Shown here piece after piece: positions 10,095 to 25,794 of a stretch of 34,932 bases of DNA. This DNA is from Candidatus Krumholzibacteriota bacterium. Its GTDB lineage: Bacteria > Krumholzibacteriota > Krumholzibacteriia > Krumholzibacteriales > Krumholzibacteriaceae. The stretch covers positions 1 through 34,932 of the forward strand of contig DAOVFR010000001.1 in NCBI GenBank assembly GCA_030672805.1, read 5' to 3'. Position 1 is the stretch's first letter; each line of letters starts with the position of its first letter. A model generated the notes under the pieces. The model was not told the DNA's origin. It saw only the letters and a list, made by a program, of their open reading frames with translations, and searched no databases. A program made the position numbers and the translations under genes.

Positions 10095-11213
10095 ATGGCG
10101 AATATAGAGAATAGGAAGGTGTGGATACCTGAAGAACTCGAACCCCGCGGGGTCACGTACGACATGCTCCACGGAGCGGGCAGGATCTCGAAACAGAAGA
10201 TCCTGATCCTCGGCGGAGGAGGGTATCTCGGCTGCATCCTTGCACGTCTGCTGGTGGAGGACAATTACGATGTGACCGTTCTTGACCGGTTTTTCTACGA
10301 ACCGCAATCACTCCAGCGGATGCGAGGCCTGAACAATATCACAATTCATTGCGGTGACATCCGGGACCGGGAGCTGCTCGAGCACGTCATGGAGGGAAAG
10401 GACGCCGTCGTCAACCTGGCCGCGATCGTCGGCGATGAGGCCTGCCGTATCAATCCCGGGGCAACCGTGGACATCAACGTGAGAACCATCCGGCTGATTG
10501 CACGGTTCGCCAGGCAGGCCGGTGTCCGGAGGATCCTGCACACATCCACATGCAGCACGTACGGTAAGAACTGCGGCGGGCTTCTAAACGAGAACATTAA
10601 GCTCGAACCGCTCTCGCTCTACGCGGAGAGCAAAGTAGAGAGCGAGAGGGTCCTGATGGAGGAAACGGATAATGGCACGGCGCCGGCCTGTTGTATTCTC
10701 AGGTTGTCGACGCTCTTCGGATATTCCCACAGACCGCGCTTCGACCTCGTCGTCAACACTTTCACCGGGCATGCATGGAAGCATGGCAAGATCACGATCT
10801 TCGGTGGAAACCAGTGGAGACCCTTCCTCCACGTTGGCGACGCGGCAAGGGCGCTGAAAACGGCGATCGAGGCGCCCGCCGACCGTGTCGCAGGTATGAT
10901 CTACAACACCGGCGGGGAGGATCTGAACCTGACAATCATGCAGGTAGGACGGATGATCAGGGAAGTTCTGCCCCGTATCGAGCTAAATGTGAAGGCGGGA
11001 TCGGTCGATGAACGTGATTACCGTGTCGATTTCTCGCTGATCCGGGAGAACCTCGGTTTCGATCCGGCGTACAGTATCTCGAACGGCGTACTCGAGCTCG
11101 TACACGCACTCGACACGGGCGAGATGATCGACCCTGAACACCCGGTCTATTCCAACTGCAAGTGGCTGACCGACAACCCTGAACTGCTCGAGGAGCCCGC
11201 GGTCCTCGTCTGA
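10095..11213 (+). CDS. NAD-dependent sugar epimerase/dehydratase (extended SDR)
   Basis: The preferred start is the ATG at 10095, 5 nt after AAAGGAG; the track ORF begins at 10035. The Rossmann motif is ILILGGGGYLGCILARLL and the catalytic YxxxK is YAESK. Confidence 0.85.
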   Translation: MANIENRKVWIPEELEPRGVTYDMLHGAGRISKQKILILGGGGYLGCILARLLVEDNYDVTVLDRFFYEPQSLQRMRGLNNITIHCGDIRDRELLEHVMEGKDAVVNLAAIVGDEACRINPGATVDINVRTIRLIARFARQAGVRRILHTSTCSTYGKNCGGLLNENIKLEPLSLYAESKVESERVLMEETDNGTAPACCILRLSTLFGYSHRPRFDLVVNTFTGHAWKHGKITIFGGNQWRPFLHVGDAARALKTAIEAPADRVAGMIYNTGGEDLNLTIMQVGRMIREVLPRIELNVKAGSVDERDYRVDFSLIRENLGFDPAYSISNGVLELVHALDTGEMIDPEHPVYSNCKWLTDNPELLEEPAVLV

Positions 11214-11245
11214 CGCACCTGCGCCCGGCAACTCTCATGAGGTGG

Positions 11246-13837
<2,592 letters not shown>

Positions 13838-16014: not shown

Positions 16015-16353
16015 CTACCCGGAGGAGGCATACCGCCTGCACGTAACAGCCAGGTAGGATTTCAGGGAATGATCGAGGGCCCAGAAATATTCATCGGCGC
16101 CGGAAACACGGATGCTCACCCTGCCTGTCGTTCCGACCGTGACCCGGAACAGCTCCGTGTAGGGAGAAACTGCGACCAGAAAACCGGATGGGGAACGGAA
16201 ACGGATCTCGAATGGAGCAACCTCTGTCACGATATCCCCGCCCAAACCCGCTACCTCGGTGCAGAGCCTGACAAACAGGAACCTGGTTGCATCCGCATCG
16301 ATGCGCGCTGACAGCTTTTCGATACCCGCCGCCGCGTTATCCAGCCGCTTCAT
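16015..16353 (-). CDS. Hypothetical small protein, third gene of the ParA-CBM48 module
   Basis: ORF 16015..16374. The start at MKRLDNAAAG (16353) would overlap the upstream gene's end by 17 nt. I recognise no motif, and it is the same-strand distal gene of a coupled operon. Confidence 0.45.
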   Translation of the reverse strand: MKRLDNAAAGIEKLSARIDADATRFLFVRLCTEVAGLGGDIVTEVAPFEIRFRSPSGFLVAVSPYTELFRVTVGTTGRVSIRVSGADEYFWALDHSLKSYLAVTCRRYASSG

Positions 16354-17137
16354 TCTCCTTGCTCCTCCTGGCACTGCTCAGAACCTGTAAGAGCGTCTGG
16401 GCCAGGTCCGTGAAAAACGGGTCCGATGGAGGCCTCCGCTGGCCGAGGCCCCGCAGGATACTGGCCGGCGCCGGCATGATCCCGCAGGCCGTATCGCCGG
16501 GCGGGCAGGCGGGCGCCGAGGCGGCAAGGTAGATGAACACATCGGGGTAACGATCCCTGATCCGCATCATCTTCCGTTGTAACGATCCCCTGCCGCTTCC
16601 CGGCTCCATGATGACGATCACGTCGGGTGATGGAGATCGACCGCCGCCGTTGACGCGGTAATGCACCGAGCACTCCTCGATCATACGGAACGGCTTGCTG
16701 TCCGGAACCGGGTCATCATATATGAATGCCGAGATAATGATATGCGGAAACCCGGGACACGGAGATCCCGGGTCATGATTCGCGAGGGAGTGCGGCGATG
16801 GGGAAAAACAGTACCGGAGCAAGGGCCCGGCCTGTCCCTCAACCACTGCCCCATCATCGAGGGTCACCGAAAGGTAGCGGGAAGGGTCGAGACCGTAATA
16901 GTAACCGATGTTCGGCAGGGAACGGCACACATCGAGAAGTGTGACCCCCATCCCCTGGCCGGCAAACCCTCCCGCGACACCCGCTGCAAGGAACGCACGT
17001 GCCGGATGGCGGCCGGAAACGGCCAGCCAGACACCAGCTTCCGTTTTGTTTTGCGGATACCCATTCGTATGTTCTCGTTCCGACAGAAAGAGGTGGGAAA
17101 CGTCAGCAAGCCGCTTTGGTGCTTTCCGTGAAGGCAT
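16337..17137 (-). CDS. ParA/MinD-like paralogue with degenerate nucleotide-binding motifs (putative pseudo-ATPase or adaptor)
   Basis: The start ATG (complement of 17135-17137) lies 2 nt after the upstream TAA. Segment order mirrors ParA: VWLAVSGRHPARAFLAAGVAGGFAGQGMGVTLLDV sits where Walker A and A' would be, but the KGG and GKT residues are lost. PHIIISAFIYDD sits at the Walker B position. DVIVIMEPGSGRGSLQRKMMRIRDRY parallels DVLIPFDPSYFSLQGLGKLRETL of the upstream ParA. The N-terminus MPSRKAPKRL is basic. Confidence 0.55.
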   Translation of the reverse strand: MPSRKAPKRLADVSHLFLSEREHTNGYPQNKTEAGVWLAVSGRHPARAFLAAGVAGGFAGQGMGVTLLDVCRSLPNIGYYYGLDPSRYLSVTLDDGAVVEGQAGPLLRYCFSPSPHSLANHDPGSPCPGFPHIIISAFIYDDPVPDSKPFRMIEECSVHYRVNGGGRSPSPDVIVIMEPGSGRGSLQRKMMRIRDRYPDVFIYLAASAPACPPGDTACGIMPAPASILRGLGQRRPPSDPFFTDLAQTLLQVLSSARRSKENEAAG

Positions 17138-17139
17138 GG

Positions 17140-18213
17140 TTAGACGATCAACAACGAGTTTTCCTGGCCGAACTCGTTCAGCACGGAGTCGGTATTGGCG
17201 GGATCCTTGATCCATACCCCGTCAACGATGAACCGGTACTCGTACTCTCCGGGTTCGAGATGAAGAACGGCCTTCCATAATCCGTCCTTGCCGTCCCGGC
17301 TCATCCTGATACCGTCGCGGGACCAGTTCGTGAATTCACCGGTTATGTACACGCTGTTTGAGTTCGGAGCATCCAGCATGAATAACATGCCCTCCTCCAC
17401 TTTCCTCGGTCCGTGAAGCCTGATCATCCAATCCTCGATATCGACTGTATCCAATACTGACACCCTTTCTTCGATCTCGCCCGCCAGCGAGAGGAATTCC
17501 CGCTTCAGCCTGCCGGTGTCCCGCATCTGGAAGATCGAAACACCCCTCAAGGCCGCTTCCTTGTACCTGACTGAATGGCTGATCGTGCTTTCCATCACGA
17601 CCGAACCGTGTTTCCTGTCGATCTCCGCCACGATGTCACGGGAGAAATTCGTTCTCTTCTCCAGGTTGTTGATCAACACGTGAACCGCCACCCTGTGCCT
17701 GGTTTCGCTCTCGAGGAGATCCAGCGTTTCCCTCAGTTTCCCAAGCCCCTGCAGCGAGAAGTAACTAGGGTCGAAAGGTATAAGAACGTCACTCGCCGCG
17801 ATAAGTGCATTGAATGTCAACAGACCAACGTTCGGTGGCGAATCGATGATGATATAATCGTACAGATCCGCGATCCTGGCTGTTTTCGATACCAGCTTTC
17901 CCTCCCGGGCCGGTTTTCCCGAAAGTTCCTGTTCGACCGCGCTGAGGATCGGCGAGGCCGCGATGATATCGAAATCCCCATCGATGTTCAATGCCGCTTC
18001 CGGTATCCTGAGACGGGGATTCATCAACAGGTCATACGACGTATGCTCGACATCGTCCAGAAACACGTTCAACCCTATCGAGGCATGAGATTGGGGATCG
18101 AGATCGATCAGAAGCACCCGCCTGCCCATCTCCTTGAAAGCAGCGGCAAGGTTGATCGAAACGGTCGTCTTGCCGCAACCTCCTTTCTGGTTTATCACCG
18201 AGACGGTTCGCAT
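17140..18213 (-). CDS. ParA/MinD-family P-loop ATPase fused to a C-terminal CBM48/AMPK-beta-type glycogen-binding (E-set) domain
   Basis: The preferred start is the ATG at 18211-18213 after AAGGGAGAG, giving MRTVSVINQKGGCGKTT with the deviant Walker A signature lysine. LLIDLDPQ is the A' motif and YIIIDSPP is Walker B. The C-terminal ~85 aa (17143-17391) read MLFMLDAPNSNSVYITGEFTNWSRDGIRMSRDGKDGLWKAVLHLEPGEYEYRFIVDGVWIKDPAN, the classic CBM48/AMPK1_CBM pattern. Confidence 0.85.
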   Translation of the reverse strand: MRTVSVINQKGGCGKTTVSINLAAAFKEMGRRVLLIDLDPQSHASIGLNVFLDDVEHTSYDLLMNPRLRIPEAALNIDGDFDIIAASPILSAVEQELSGKPAREGKLVSKTARIADLYDYIIIDSPPNVGLLTFNALIAASDVLIPFDPSYFSLQGLGKLRETLDLLESETRHRVAVHVLINNLEKRTNFSRDIVAEIDRKHGSVVMESTISHSVRYKEAALRGVSIFQMRDTGRLKREFLSLAGEIEERVSVLDTVDIEDWMIRLHGPRKVEEGMLFMLDAPNSNSVYITGEFTNWSRDGIRMSRDGKDGLWKAVLHLEPGEYEYRFIVDGVWIKDPANTDSVLNEFGQENSLLIV

Positions 18214-22536: not shown

Positions 22537-23700
22537 TTGGTAGAGACGGGAATCGATATACTGTTGCGGGAGGCCCGGACACGCCTGCAGGGCAGGCGTA
22601 TCGGGCTTCTTGCCAATCCGGCGTCAGTGACGGCCGACCTTCGTCACGCGGCGGAAGCACTCGTCTCGAACGGTGTGCGTCTCTCCTGCCTGTTCGGTCC
22701 CCAGCACGGTTATCGCGGTGACACCCAGGCGAACATGGTCGAATGGAAGGGCTTCAGGCACGAAACGCTCGGGATACCGGTACACTCGCTCTACGGGAAG
22801 AGCCGCGAACCGGATGCGTCGGTGCTCCGGGAGCTGGACACAATCATCATCGACCTGCCCGACGCCGGGGCCCGGCCGTACACATATATCTGGACCGCCG
22901 TCCTGATGATGCGCGCGTGTGCCGGGACGGGTACGGAGGTTATCGTCTGTGACCGGCCGAACCCGATCGGGGGCGAACTGGTCGAGGGGCCGCTGCTCGA
23001 ACCGGGCCTCTTCTCCTTTGTCGGGCTTTTCCCGCTCGTGATGAGACACGGGATGACGCCGGGCGAGATACTCACGATGATCGACACGGCCGGGGAACCG
23101 GCCTGCCGTCTCGAGGTTGTGCGGATGGCCGGATGGAAACGCTCGATGTACTTCGAGGAAACCGGCCTGCCGTGGGTGCTCCCTTCGCCGAACATCCCGA
23201 CCGCCGACACTGCCGCAGTCTACCCGGGAACGGTGATGCTCGAGGGAACGAACATCTCCGAGGGACGGGGCACGACACGGCCCTTCGAGATCATCGGCGC
23301 CCCATGGATAGAACCCGGTCCCTTCGCAGACGCGCTGCGCGGGTTCCCCATCGAGGGAGCGGCACTCCGGCCATGCCGTTTTACGCCGACGTGGGATAAA
23401 TACCATGGCGAGGTATGCGGAGGCGTCCAGGTCCACGTACTCGACCGGGAACGTTTCCGGCCGGTGCGGTTCGGGGCCGAAGTCATCGGAGCCGCCGCCG
23501 CTCTGTATCCGGATCGGTTCGCCTGGAGCGAACCTCCGTACGAATACGATTTCGAGCATCCCCCTATCGACATCCTTTCGGGAAGCGAGAAATTGAGGAA
23601 ATCGGCCGGGAAGAAGACGGGGCTGGCGGAACTGTTCCGGTCGTGGGATAGGGACGAGGCGGAGTTTTCACGCCGGAGAGAACCTTTCCTGCTTTACTAA
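22537..23700 (+). CDS. DUF1343 family protein (NamZ-like exo-beta-N-acetylmuramidase)
   Basis: TTG start with no in-frame ATG nearby. Hallmark DUF1343 motifs are present: RIGLLANPASV, LFGPQHGYRGD, IIDLPDAGARPYTYIWT and VCDRPNPIGG. Confidence 0.85.
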   Translation: MVETGIDILLREARTRLQGRRIGLLANPASVTADLRHAAEALVSNGVRLSCLFGPQHGYRGDTQANMVEWKGFRHETLGIPVHSLYGKSREPDASVLRELDTIIIDLPDAGARPYTYIWTAVLMMRACAGTGTEVIVCDRPNPIGGELVEGPLLEPGLFSFVGLFPLVMRHGMTPGEILTMIDTAGEPACRLEVVRMAGWKRSMYFEETGLPWVLPSPNIPTADTAAVYPGTVMLEGTNISEGRGTTRPFEIIGAPWIEPGPFADALRGFPIEGAALRPCRFTPTWDKYHGEVCGGVQVHVLDRERFRPVRFGAEVIGAAAALYPDRFAWSEPPYEYDFEHPPIDILSGSEKLRKSAGKKTGLAELFRSWDRDEAEFSRRREPFLLY

Positions 23701-23783
23701 TCGGCCCGCTTTATCAATAATCGCCCCCAGCAAGTCCACTGACCTATCTCGAAGCTGCGCCCTACGGTAACCGGGTCTGTCAT

Positions 23784-24767
23784 ATGGATCGTTCATCCAA
23801 TCGTGAATCGGTCGCAGGAGTGATCCTCACCGCCGGGCTCGGAAGGCGGATGAGGCCTATCACGGAGACCGTTCCGAAACCGCTTCTTCCCGTCCTTGGA
23901 ATTCCCCTCTTCGAGGTCATCGCAGAGAAGCTCCTGCGGAGCGGGGCCGCCCGTATCCACTGCAACCTCTTTCACCTCGGCGAGAGAATCGAGGCGTTCG
24001 CCTCATCGATGGACCGGCCGCTCACCTTCCATCACGAGGAACGCCTCCTCGGAATCGGAGGCGGAATCGGACATATGGCCCAACACCTGGAGCGGTACGG
24101 AGTTATCATGATCCATAACGGGGACATAGTCTCGAACATCGATTTCGCACCGGTTCTCCGGTACCACGCGGAACGGGGGCAGCTCGTTACCCTTGTTCTC
24201 TCCCCGGAGGGACCGGTACGGAACGTCTGGTGTACCGGTACGGGAGAGGTGCGGCGCTTCGGCACGTTCGATTCGCCGGATGAACCGGACGTCAAGGCAC
24301 TCGGGTACACGGGACTCTCTGTCATATCGGCTGGAGCCCTCTCCTTCTTCCCGCGCGGCGTGCCGGGAGGTCTCGCCCCGATCCTCCATGCGATGATCGA
24401 GGAGCATCCCGGCTCCGTGCATGGACTGGATATTTCCACGATCGACCCCCGGTACCTGTGGAACGAGATCGGATCTCCACGGTCGTACCTCGACGTGCAC
24501 AGAACAATACTGGTCGAGAAGACCGTCTACGACCGTCTTCTCCCGCCCCCTCCCCTTCCGCTTCACGTGGGTGAAGGGGCTTTCGTGGCGCCGGATGCAG
24601 TCTGGCGGGGCTTTCTCGAGGTCGGTCCGGGAGCCCGTGTCGGACGAAACACGGTTCTCGAAAACTGCGTCATCCTCGAAGGGACGGCCGTACCCGGGGA
24701 CACCTCGTACCGCAACGCGATCATCTATCCCGGAGGAAGTCTCGAAACGGAGCGGAGCAATGAATAA
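23784..24767 (+). CDS. Sugar-1-phosphate nucleotidyltransferase (MurU-like) with a C-terminal hexapeptide-repeat extension
   Basis: The NTP_transferase N-terminus is GVILTAGLGRRMRPITETVPKPLLPV. The C-terminal ~70 aa carry left-handed beta-helix-like repeats (VGPGARVGRNTVLENCVILEGTAVPGDTSYRNAIIYPGG). Its end overlaps the downstream kinase start by 8 nt. Confidence 0.8.
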   Translation: MDRSSNRESVAGVILTAGLGRRMRPITETVPKPLLPVLGIPLFEVIAEKLLRSGAARIHCNLFHLGERIEAFASSMDRPLTFHHEERLLGIGGGIGHMAQHLERYGVIMIHNGDIVSNIDFAPVLRYHAERGQLVTLVLSPEGPVRNVWCTGTGEVRRFGTFDSPDEPDVKALGYTGLSVISAGALSFFPRGVPGGLAPILHAMIEEHPGSVHGLDISTIDPRYLWNEIGSPRSYLDVHRTILVEKTVYDRLLPPPPLPLHVGEGAFVAPDAVWRGFLEVGPGARVGRNTVLENCVILEGTAVPGDTSYRNAIIYPGGSLETERSNE

Positions 24768-25794
24768 CGATCCCGCATTCCTGAAAGACCTGGCCGAAAC
24801 CGCCGTCCGCCTCGCCGTACAGTCGGACCGGGGCCCGTTCGACGGTCCGGCGGAATTGACCCCGCTCGCGCACGGCGGGTCGCACAGGGGTTTCTACCGT
24901 ATATCGGACGGAATACGGTCGGCCGTCGTTCTCTCCCAGCCCGGCGCCGGCGAGTTCGAACGGTACGTCGAGATTGGCGCTTTCTTGCGCAAGAACGGCG
25001 TCGGCGTACCTGAATTCTACAACGTGGACCGGCAGCGCGGCGTGCTCCTGATGGAAGACCTCGGCGGGCTCCACCTCGAGGACTGGCTCGAGGAAGCGGA
25101 TCCCGGGAGTGAACTCGCACTGTACAGGATGTGTATCGAGATGCTGGTACTTCTCGAGACGGCGGTCACGGCAGCGATGAAGCGGGAAGGTTTCCTCGAG
25201 GAAACCGTGTTCGACGAAAAAACACTTCTCGGCGAGACGGAATACTTTGCGAGGGAGTTCATCGACGGGTACTGCCCCGTTAGATACGCCGGCGGGTGGG
25301 AAAGCGAGAGGACGCTCCTCGCCGGGACGCTCGCCGGACGTCCCCGACTGTTCATGCACCGCGATTTCCAGTGCAGGAACATCATCGTCAAGGACGGCAA
25401 GCCGAGATTGATCGATTTCCAGGCGGCCCACCGGGGACCCGGCCTCTACGACGCCGCGTCGCTGCTCAAGGACCCCTATCACCCGCTCGACCGGGAAGCG
25501 AGAATCGGACTTCTCGCCTTCTTTCATGACAGGTTGAAGGAAGCCGGGGCGCCCGTACCGCCCGGTTTCGGGGAATACGCCGGGCTCTTCGTCCTTGCGG
25601 GAATCCAGCGGAACCTGCAGGCGCTCGCCGCCTTTGCACGACTGGGCCTGAGAGAGGGAAAACGGCATTTCCTCCGTTACATCCCCGCCGGCGTGCGGCT
25701 TCTCGAAGAGGGTATCGAGGAGGCGGGATGCCTGCCCGCCCTGAAACAGATGGTCACCGAGATCGGAGAGAAAATATCGAAAGGAATTGAGTAG
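24760..25794 (+). CDS. Aminoglycoside-phosphotransferase-fold sugar kinase (AmgK-like anomeric MurNAc/GlcNAc kinase)
   Basis: The start is the ATG at 24760 (MNNDPAFL); the track ORF 24421.. begins inside the upstream gene. APH-fold catalytic motifs are LFMHRDFQCRNIIV and RLIDFQAAHRGPGLYDAASLLKDPY. It is coupled to a nucleotidyltransferase, as in known amgK-murU pairs. Confidence 0.75.
   Translation: MNNDPAFLKDLAETAVRLAVQSDRGPFDGPAELTPLAHGGSHRGFYRISDGIRSAVVLSQPGAGEFERYVEIGAFLRKNGVGVPEFYNVDRQRGVLLMEDLGGLHLEDWLEEADPGSELALYRMCIEMLVLLETAVTAAMKREGFLEETVFDEKTLLGETEYFAREFIDGYCPVRYAGGWESERTLLAGTLAGRPRLFMHRDFQCRNIIVKDGKPRLIDFQAAHRGPGLYDAASLLKDPYHPLDREARIGLLAFFHDRLKEAGAPVPPGFGEYAGLFVLAGIQRNLQALAAFARLGLREGKRHFLRYIPAGVRLLEEGIEEAGCLPALKQMVTEIGEKISKGIE

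Follow-up and report, generated by a model that had tools for sequence, protein, structure and literature searches.

The window analysed here is the whole of a 34,932-nucleotide (nt) stretch from a Candidatus Krumholzibacteriota bacterium (assembly GCA_030672805.1, contig DAOVFR010000001.1, positions 1 to 34,932 of the forward strand). Its subject is a minus-strand gene, here called parA-CBM48, whose product joins a ParA-type ATPase to a C-terminal module of the CBM48/AMPK-beta type, and the two genes that follow it, gene 2 and gene 3. The features of the locus, with product lengths in amino acids (aa) and the basis of each assignment in brackets, are as follows.

17140..18213, minus strand: parA-CBM48 gene, 357 aa plus stop (translation of the open reading frame (ORF), Pfam, homologues)
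17464..18213, minus strand: Soj/ParA-type ATPase domain, residues 1-250 (Pfam, PDB sequence search, motifs)
17401..17463, minus strand: linker, residues 251-271, including the conserved DWMIRLHGP (alignments)
17143..17400, minus strand: CBM48/AMPK-beta-type module, residues 272-357 (Pfam, PDB search, predicted fold)
16337..17137, minus strand: gene 2, 266 aa, putative MinD/FlhG/ParA-like pseudo-ATPase (profile matches, conserved downstream position)
17081..17125, minus strand: N-terminal peptide of gene 2, residues 5-19 (KAPKRLADVSHLFLS), ParB-like (degenerate form of the motif of its relatives)
16015..16374, minus strand: gene 3, 119 aa from GTG 16374, or 112 aa from ATG 16353

The ORF list and the translation place the parA-CBM48 start at ATG 18213 and the stop at TAA 17142-17140. 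GTG 18249 is an improbable alternative start, since more than 120 homologous clusters have proteins of 357 aa with MRT at the N-terminus, and since a Shine-Dalgarno-like stretch, GGGAGAG, lies 5′ of the ATG. The ATG of gene 2 (17137) is only 2 nt past the stop of parA-CBM48, and gene 3 overlaps the 3′ end of gene 2. This arrangement bears out a first-pass annotation of the same DNA, which had placed the fusion gene at the head of a translationally coupled three-gene operon.

A ParA-type ATPase joined to a CBM48 module

The same annotation had read the N-terminal part of the protein as an intact ParA-type ATPase and the last ~85 aa as a CBM48/AMPK-beta module, and both assignments held. For the ATPase, Pfam reports AAA_31 at residues 1-174 (E = 1e-44) and CbiA (3e-18), and the motifs are in place: the deviant Walker A KGGCGKTT at residues 10-17 (DNA 18163-18186), DLDPQ at 37-41 and the Walker B IIIDSPP at 121-127. 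Among PDB sequences the domain matches ParA (8ray_B, 6.5e-39), Thermus thermophilus Soj (1wcv, 2e-32) and McdA (6non, 3e-10), with 34-36% identity to the Soj/ParA proteins of Thermus, Listeria and the source of 8ray, perhaps Myxococcus. All of 124 fused representatives have K10, K15, Q41 and D124. R187 and R216 align with arginines of T. thermophilus Soj and 8ray, at the positions of R189 and R218 of Bacillus subtilis Soj, which we take to be non-specific DNA-binding positions; the former is arginine in 107 of the 124 representatives and position 216 is arginine or lysine in 97. Positions 189 and 218, which are neutral in canonical ParAs, also bear lysine or arginine in fused proteins.

No NCBIfam ParA/MinD model reaches its curated cut-off; the best match, ParA_partition, has 125 bits against 180. 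Among the fused proteins, ATPase domains share on average ~40% identity, against 37-39% with two canonical ParAs, and a neighbour-joining tree puts both of the latter outside all of the fused sequences. Since these two are the only outgroups, the tree is weak evidence for a single origin of the fused ATPases.

The C-terminal part matches AMPK1_CBM at residues 285-355 (E = 2.3e-13; 50.6 bits against a cut-off of 26.8) and CBM_48 (E = 7e-7; 29.9 bits against 22.4). The search of PDB sequences leads to the glycogen-binding domain of AMPK beta1/beta2 (1z0n, 2e-9). An AlphaFold model of the last 130 aa has a predicted local distance difference test score (pLDDT) of 80-91 over this part, and the top PDB matches that Foldseek finds with it are all AMPK beta1/beta2 carbohydrate-binding modules (CBMs), with probability 1.0, target-normalised TM-scores of 0.84-0.86, root-mean-square deviations of 1.3-2.0 Å and 32-33% identity; SEX4 and LSF1 are also among the PDB matches of the module. 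Five residues of the AMPK beta1 CBM presumably contact the sugar (a cyclodextrin) in the structure 1Z0N, and they correspond to the following positions in the protein of the window.

AMPK beta1 W100: window W297; W in 129 of 129 fused sequences
AMPK beta1 K126: window R327; K or R in 124 of 129
AMPK beta1 W133: window W334; W in 124 of 129
AMPK beta1 L146: window F348; F, Y, L or M in about 99 of 129
AMPK beta1 N150: window N352; N or D in 118 of 129

The predicted sugar-binding residues are thus kept in about 95% of 129 highly diverged members. Judged by sequence, predicted fold and key residues, the module is a bona fide CBM48/AMPK1_CBM. The fusion protein has no signal peptide or membrane segment.

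Distribution, glucan-gene neighbours and partner genes

The first-pass annotation had proposed, as a check, a survey of the architecture across genomes, and such surveys find the fusion of ParA and CBM48 kept across phyla. When the C-terminal alignment served as query against GTDB, with each species represented by one genome, 383 stretches encoded a relative, and 80 loci were kept; 72 of these encode a fused ORF of ~357 aa with a Walker A motif, Fibrobacteraceae included. From a HMMER search of 1.84 billion representatives clustered at 50% identity, the best 150 were analysed with domain HMMs, and 128 of them are ParA with a C-terminal CBM48, 33-57% identical to the window protein. All 120 matches listed in the first protein search were likewise fused, ~357 aa long and 55-75% identical. 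The closest homologues are named Krumholzibacteriota, Latescibacterota and Eisenbacteria, and other named carriers are Fibrobacteraceae, Glassbacteria, Nitrospirota and Planctomycetota/Phycisphaerales. Databases currently label the proteins “AAA family ATPase” or “chromosome partitioning protein”. In all members the CBM is C-terminal, and in most 0-2 residues come after it. The linker before it varies from 5 to 355 aa, is of low complexity across clades and is short in the clade of the window; in the long ones A, P, E, D and S abound, which is the composition expected of a flexible tether.

Other arrangements of the two domains were also seen. In a Chitinivibrionia metagenome-assembled genome (MAG), one stretch encodes ParA in one reading frame and CBM48 in another (L064, 214-1084), probably a frameshifted or mis-assembled copy of the fusion gene. 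MAGs of Spirochaetales, Verrucomicrobiota and delta-proteobacteria (L078, L079, L082 and L083) encode stand-alone CBM48 proteins of ~125-190 aa, and similar small proteins are encoded directly downstream of the fusion gene in L095/L096. They have a basic, Lys/Arg-rich N-terminal tail and a CBM48 47-50% identical to that of the fusion, and they may be unfused counterparts or adaptors. A further set of very large, ATPase-free proteins (P0134, P0144, P0217, P0228 and others) carries up to 18 tandem CBM48-like modules, for example 18 repeats in 1,812 aa.

The link to alpha-glucan metabolism comes from the neighbours of the fusion gene in related loci. GH57 alpha-glucan enzymes, including GH57 branching enzymes, and GlgA-type synthases are found on the same strand in 18 related loci from at least five lineages. 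In L088, whose fusion is 39% identical to that of the window, the module is followed on the same strand by a GH57 gene, a DUF4912 gene and a branching enzyme of GH57 plus BE_C composition. In L047, a Latescibacterota MAG with a fusion 54% identical to that of the window, it is followed by two GlgA-type synthases (Glyco_transf_5 plus Glycos_transf_1) and again a GH57 plus BE_C branching enzyme. L090 and L137 have GH57 downstream on the same strand, and in 14 metagenomic loci a GH57 gene of 510-520 aa lies ~0.65 kb upstream, also on the same strand (Pfam E between 1e-62 and 1e-68). Counted over diverse loci with at least 5 kb of flank, GH57 is present in 14 of 37. By a rough estimate rather than a computed control, chance alone should place less than one GH57 gene in the ~560 kb of flanking DNA examined. 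Searches of the loci with E. coli GlgA/B/C/P/X seeds gave, besides GH57 matches, only a weak GlgA-like match in L047 and one GlgC in L159, and among the 25 families shown by Pfam for large neighbours lacking GH57 there was no further recurrent glucan family. Taken from gene order, the recurrent linkage to GH57, GlgA and branching enzymes is independent support for an alpha-glucan connection.

The 14 metagenomic loci (L110, L117, L123, L126, L133, L142, L143, L147, L148, L156, L158, L161, L162 and L165) share a cluster composed of an Alginate_exp-like outer-membrane porin, GH57, a single-pass membrane protein of ~190 aa with a beta-rich C-terminal domain, and ParA-CBM48; a polytopic membrane protein of ~109 aa is often next after ParA-CBM48. 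Within this group the fusions share 52-71% identity; between the group and the four other cases, and likewise among those four, identity does not exceed 48%.

The gene directly downstream of the fusion is conserved as well. A gene 2 homologue occupies this place in 62 of 68 genome loci, and the same partner gene is found there in Nitrospirota (L084), Glassbacteria (L085) and in L087-L090, L099 and L135/L137. It diverges fast, with 37% identity where ParA-CBM48 has 72%. Pfam and NCBIfam give no ParB/Srx or helix-turn-helix (HTH) domain in gene 2 and no family above threshold, and weak CbiA or ParA matches come from a few members, CbiA/AAA_31 appearing in 3 of 41. A gene 2 profile compared with PDB sequences matches FleN/FlhG (1.8e-5) and archaeal MinD (1hyq, 8.6e-5) over the full length, at positions 36-256, and in an hhalign comparison with the ParA domain its beta1-helix1-beta2 segment falls on the P-loop region (E = 4e-4). 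The Walker A lysines are absent (VWLAVSGRHPARAF). Because these lysines are missing and the profile resembles MinD/FlhG, the gene 2 product appears to be a MinD/FlhG-fold pseudo-ATPase, the fold being assigned from profile matches at E of about 1e-5.

The N-terminus of the partner is what recalls ParB. In relatives it reads K/R..LG(R/K)G(L/I)(E/D)(E/D)(I/V)SHLFLS, and in other clades it also precedes unrelated, shorter bodies (about 190, 210 and 500 aa). In annotated plasmid and chromosome records, ParB proteins encoded next to ParA start alike, as in Thermaerobacter (MSRKRGGLGRGLEGLL) and in Listeria Spo0J (MAKGLGKGINALF). An N-terminal peptide with a basic residue reportedly stimulates the ParA/Soj ATPase, the residue being R10 in T. 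thermophilus Spo0J (work said to be that of Leonard and colleagues in 2005) and K7 in B. subtilis Spo0J (said to be that of Scholefield and colleagues in 2011). In the gene 2 product of the window, with the N-terminus KRLADVSHLFLS, the motif has the degenerate form PKRLADVSHLFLS and K8 is kept at the position of the ParB Arg/Lys; this position is R, K or H in 49 of 63 sequences of the Krumholzi-type partner alignment. No ParB came up among PDB sequences in a search with a profile of the partner motif; at 25 residues the profile is too short, and the PDB constructs are truncated.

In L137 the motif occurs a second time, in a further protein. There (10872-12452, plus strand), a gene adjoining GH57 and lying 7 kb downstream of the ParA-CBM48/partner pair encodes 526 aa with a Lys-rich disordered N-terminal region, an embedded ParB-like motif (KRLGKGLKDISHLFFS), DUF4912 and a C-terminus resembling glucodextranase domain B. 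This single case suggests that glycogen-cluster proteins can carry the putative ParA-interaction peptide.

Gene 3 encodes a small conserved protein with homologues in 48 of 64 loci; its 40 members have no Pfam or NCBIfam match, and jackhmmer finds it unrelated to the third genes of other lineages. The downstream partners vary between clades. The third genes of L084 (9929-10495), L087 (8895-9485), L088 (9216-9833) and L137 (4685-5374) encode 188-230 aa, unlike gene 3 of the window, and their “D..G....VVVEFE/VLVDFE” pattern looks, by inspection, like a degenerate PD-(D/E)xK (NucS/DUF91-like) core. In L126, L132, L134, L147, L149 and L150 the first downstream gene encodes 130-150 aa with an extremely Lys-rich N-terminal tail and a small barrel (weak GTP_EFTU_D2, E = 7e-5), which could be another type of partner.

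Proposed granule positioning and its alternatives

We hypothesize that the three genes form an ATP-regulated module that tethers or positions glycogen granules at the nucleoid, a reading to which we give a probability of roughly 0.5. With ATP, ParA-CBM48 would form the sandwich dimer typical of deviant Walker A ATPases, and the dimer would bind nucleoid DNA non-specifically through the conserved basic residues. The CBM48 of each protomer, on its flexible linker, would grip alpha-1,4-glucan chains of glycogen particles, so that granules would become tethered to the nucleoid. The gene 2 pseudo-ATPase would present its ParB-like N-terminal peptide, a basic residue followed by a hydrophobic SHLFLS helix, and thereby stimulate ATP hydrolysis, upon which ParA would leave the DNA. 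Cycles of binding and release could spread or partition the granules, as in ParABS and McdAB, or provide at least an ATP-regulated tether, and gene 3 would encode an accessory protein. We infer the DNA binding, the glycan binding, the stimulation by gene 2 and the positioning from sequence comparisons. The first-pass annotation had already arrived at a system for positioning or segregating glycogen or alpha-glucan granules, or another glycan-decorated cargo. All the computational checks that it had suggested turned out in its favour, and the links to GH57, GlgA and branching enzymes lend it further support, whereas the positioning itself is still a proposal.

A broader form of the hypothesis is more tentative, and we hold it somewhat short of an even chance. 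According to it, this would be a widespread ParA-based system for positioning glycogen granules, in which the motor carries CBM48 on a flexible tether and is triggered by the pseudo-ATPase partner or, in some lineages, by glycogen-cluster proteins (e.g., those with DUF4912), all bearing the LG(R/K)GL..SHLFLS peptide.

ParA/MinD ATPases are a general bacterial means to place chromosomes, plasmids, carboxysomes, chemoreceptor arrays, flagella and division sites. The module resembles chromosomal ParABS (Soj/Spo0J) in its deviant Walker A ATPase at 34-36% identity, in the basic positions corresponding to Soj R189/R218 and in the ParB-like, putatively activating LG(R/K)GL-type peptide of the partner. 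It differs in having neither ParB nor parS, a putative MinD-like pseudo-ATPase as partner, a CBM48 at the C-terminus of the ATPase, and neighbours that are alpha-glucan enzymes rather than genes of the origin region. Neither a ParB-like (box II) ORF nor a second ParA is present in the window, and with up to 3 mismatches to TGTTTCACGTGAAACA allowed it has no parS; in the gene neighbourhoods of 168 related loci not one ParB adjoins the fusion gene. This agrees with the earlier observation that neither parB nor a complete parS is nearby.

Other ParA/MinD cargo systems include McdAB, ParC/ParP, PomXYZ, MipZ, FlhG and BcsQ, where the cargo is read by an adaptor such as McdB, ParP or PomXY. McdAB-like systems share with the module a dedicated ParA/MinD ATPase for a non-DNA cytoplasmic cargo, a small, fast-evolving partner and the nucleoid as presumed matrix; here, however, cargo binder and ATPase are one protein, and a polysaccharide granule is the proposed cargo. 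The first-pass annotation had contrasted this fusion with systems that act through an adaptor protein. The CBM48 does sit on the ATPase itself, but the system is not without an adaptor, for a conserved partner exists, the putative gene 2 pseudo-ATPase with its ParB-like peptide. A catalytically dead partner of this kind has a precedent in PadC, the ParA-like pseudo-ATPase adaptor of Myxococcus, although gene 2 is nearer to MinD/FlhG and has the ParB-like N-terminal peptide. The concept of a storage granule attached to the nucleoid for distribution is known from PhaM, which tethers polyhydroxybutyrate (PHB) granules to it; PhaM is not an ATPase and has no sequence relationship to the fusion module. 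On the carbohydrate side, the fold and the sugar-binding residues are those of the CBM48/AMPK1_CBM domains of AMPK beta and of plant PTST, SEX4 and LSF1, and there too a non-catalytic CBM48 brings another activity to glycogen or starch. The present module, in contrast, is fused to a bacterial ParA ATPase and comes without a kinase, phosphatase or coiled-coil partner.

Two functions known for related ATPases were considered and rejected. A MinD-like membrane switch lacks the C-terminal amphipathic membrane-targeting helix, in whose place the fusion has CBM48, and neither minC nor minE is in the window. A role in exopolysaccharide synthesis like that of BcsQ was set aside on account of the weaker Pfam match, the absence of bcs genes and the cytoplasmic alpha-glucan module. 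The module would therefore work like ParA/MinD positioning systems such as ParABS and McdAB, but it is not a member of any named one, because ParB and parS are absent, the equivalog models score below their cut-offs and the MinD membrane helix is missing. A full-text literature search found no account of a ParA-CBM48 protein or of ParA-dependent glycogen positioning, in agreement with the first-pass annotation, to which no characterised system of this kind was known.

Several points weigh against positioning of glycogen granules. The 35-kb window contains no glycogen gene. GH57 is present in only 1 of the 61 genome loci of its clade, whose conserved neighbours are instead DUF212, an M10-like peptidase and ClpB. 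The number of independent GH57 associations is about five rather than 18, because the cases with GH57 upstream come largely from one clade with fusions 52-71% identical to each other, and it is in this very clade of 14 loci that the LG(R/K)GL partner was not found. The AlphaFold model of gene 2, built from 13 sequences, is poor (pLDDT 47, predicted TM-score 0.45), and Foldseek with it returned only noise. A cargo binder on the motor instead of the activator does not fit the layout of a classical diffusion ratchet, which would need an activator on the granule too; the DUF4912 protein hints at one, in L137 and not in the clade of the window. CBM48/E-set domains, moreover, can also serve in contacts between proteins, which is what the CBM does in AMPK.

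That the cargo-binding module is on the ATPase rather than on the activator would suit a sensor of glycogen status, in which CBM48 sequesters or regulates a nucleoid-binding ParA switch according to the glycogen level of the cell, by analogy with the CBM of AMPK beta. Such a switch could couple the state of the carbon store to the choice of division site, to chromosome organisation or to the localisation of the gene 2 and gene 3 proteins. The domain does belong to the AMPK1_CBM subfamily, the partner has the MinD/FlhG-like fold used in division-site and flagellar regulation, and variation of the downstream partners between clades would also be in keeping with it. Nevertheless, we consider a sensor rather unlikely: no division, flagellar or other target genes are conserved beside the module, the linkage is to the glucan-metabolising enzymes themselves, and linkers of up to 355 disordered residues resemble tethers and not allosteric couplings. 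The E-set/CBM48 fold as a protein-contact module leads to another alternative, in which the C-terminal beta-sandwich would bind a protein (the gene 2 or gene 3 product), another ligand or another polysaccharide, and the cargo would be a different one. In the Krumholzi clade the whole C-terminal stretch, beyond the sugar site, is almost invariant (GEYEYRFIVDGVWIKDP..NEFGQENSLL), the window has exopolysaccharide genes 5-10 kb away and no glycogen gene, and multi-repeat proteins with up to 18 copies of the module exist. This alternative is nonetheless unlikely in view of the AMPK beta sugar-contact residues, kept through such divergence, and of the GH57, GlgA and branching-enzyme neighbours in at least five lineages; for a protein with neither signal peptide nor membrane segment, an extracellular polysaccharide is not an obvious ligand.

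The nearest solved relatives of the ATPase are chromosomal Soj/ParA proteins, its DNA-binding arginines are conserved and automatic annotation calls it a chromosome partitioning protein, all of which would agree with an ordinary chromosome or plasmid ParA that has acquired an extra domain. Gene 2, with its ParB-like N-terminal peptide, would then be a highly diverged replacement of ParB. We regard this as very improbable, because ParB and parS are absent (from the window, and ParB from the neighbourhood in all 168 loci) and GH57 is linked. The partner, furthermore, has no ParB/Srx or HTH domain in Pfam or NCBIfam, the partition-ATPase models of NCBIfam all remain below their cut-offs, the two canonical ParAs fall outside the fused sequences in the neighbour-joining tree, and the gene shows no conserved location close to origin-type genes.

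Glycogen is the most common carbon store, and to our knowledge no machinery is known to organise or partition it. If positioning of glycogen granules were confirmed, the module would be the first machinery in bacteria dedicated to how a polysaccharide storage granule is organised in space and inherited, and such granules would join the list of ParA cargos. Its design is unusual in placing the cargo binder on the motor and in having a putative pseudo-ATPase as activator, and would challenge the picture of a cargo-borne adaptor that stimulates ParA. Hundreds of entries from poorly known phyla, now named “AAA family ATPase” or “chromosome partitioning protein”, would also gain a function. The family is a directly testable candidate, since it combines a small and well-understood domain as cargo handle, an intact ATPase and a short predicted trigger peptide.

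Surroundings of the operon in the window

Upstream of parA-CBM48 are a DUF212 gene and an SBP_bac_5 gene, and downstream of the operon are the M10-like peptidase and ClpB. The gap between DUF212 and parA-CBM48 is 325 nt. This leader contains a near-consensus promoter-like site (TTGACA, 18 nt, CAGAAT) at 18501-18472 on the minus strand and, ~170 nt past it and shortly before the start of parA, a hairpin of 13 bp and its T-run at 18300-18272, also on the minus strand. Together they could be a leader, an attenuator or a small RNA. Rfam has no match in the window, this leader included, and the fold energy of the leader is ordinary (z -0.19).

Farther out, the window encodes the exopolysaccharide genes, a NamZ/NTP-transferase/APH cluster, PGI and other housekeeping genes. 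The cluster lies at 22537-25794 on the plus strand, where NamZ (an exo-beta-N-acetylmuramidase), NTP_transferase and an APH-family kinase stand in a row, in the same order as in L001; by its gene content, this row resembles a cluster for MurNAc/peptidoglycan recycling (AmgK/MurU-like).

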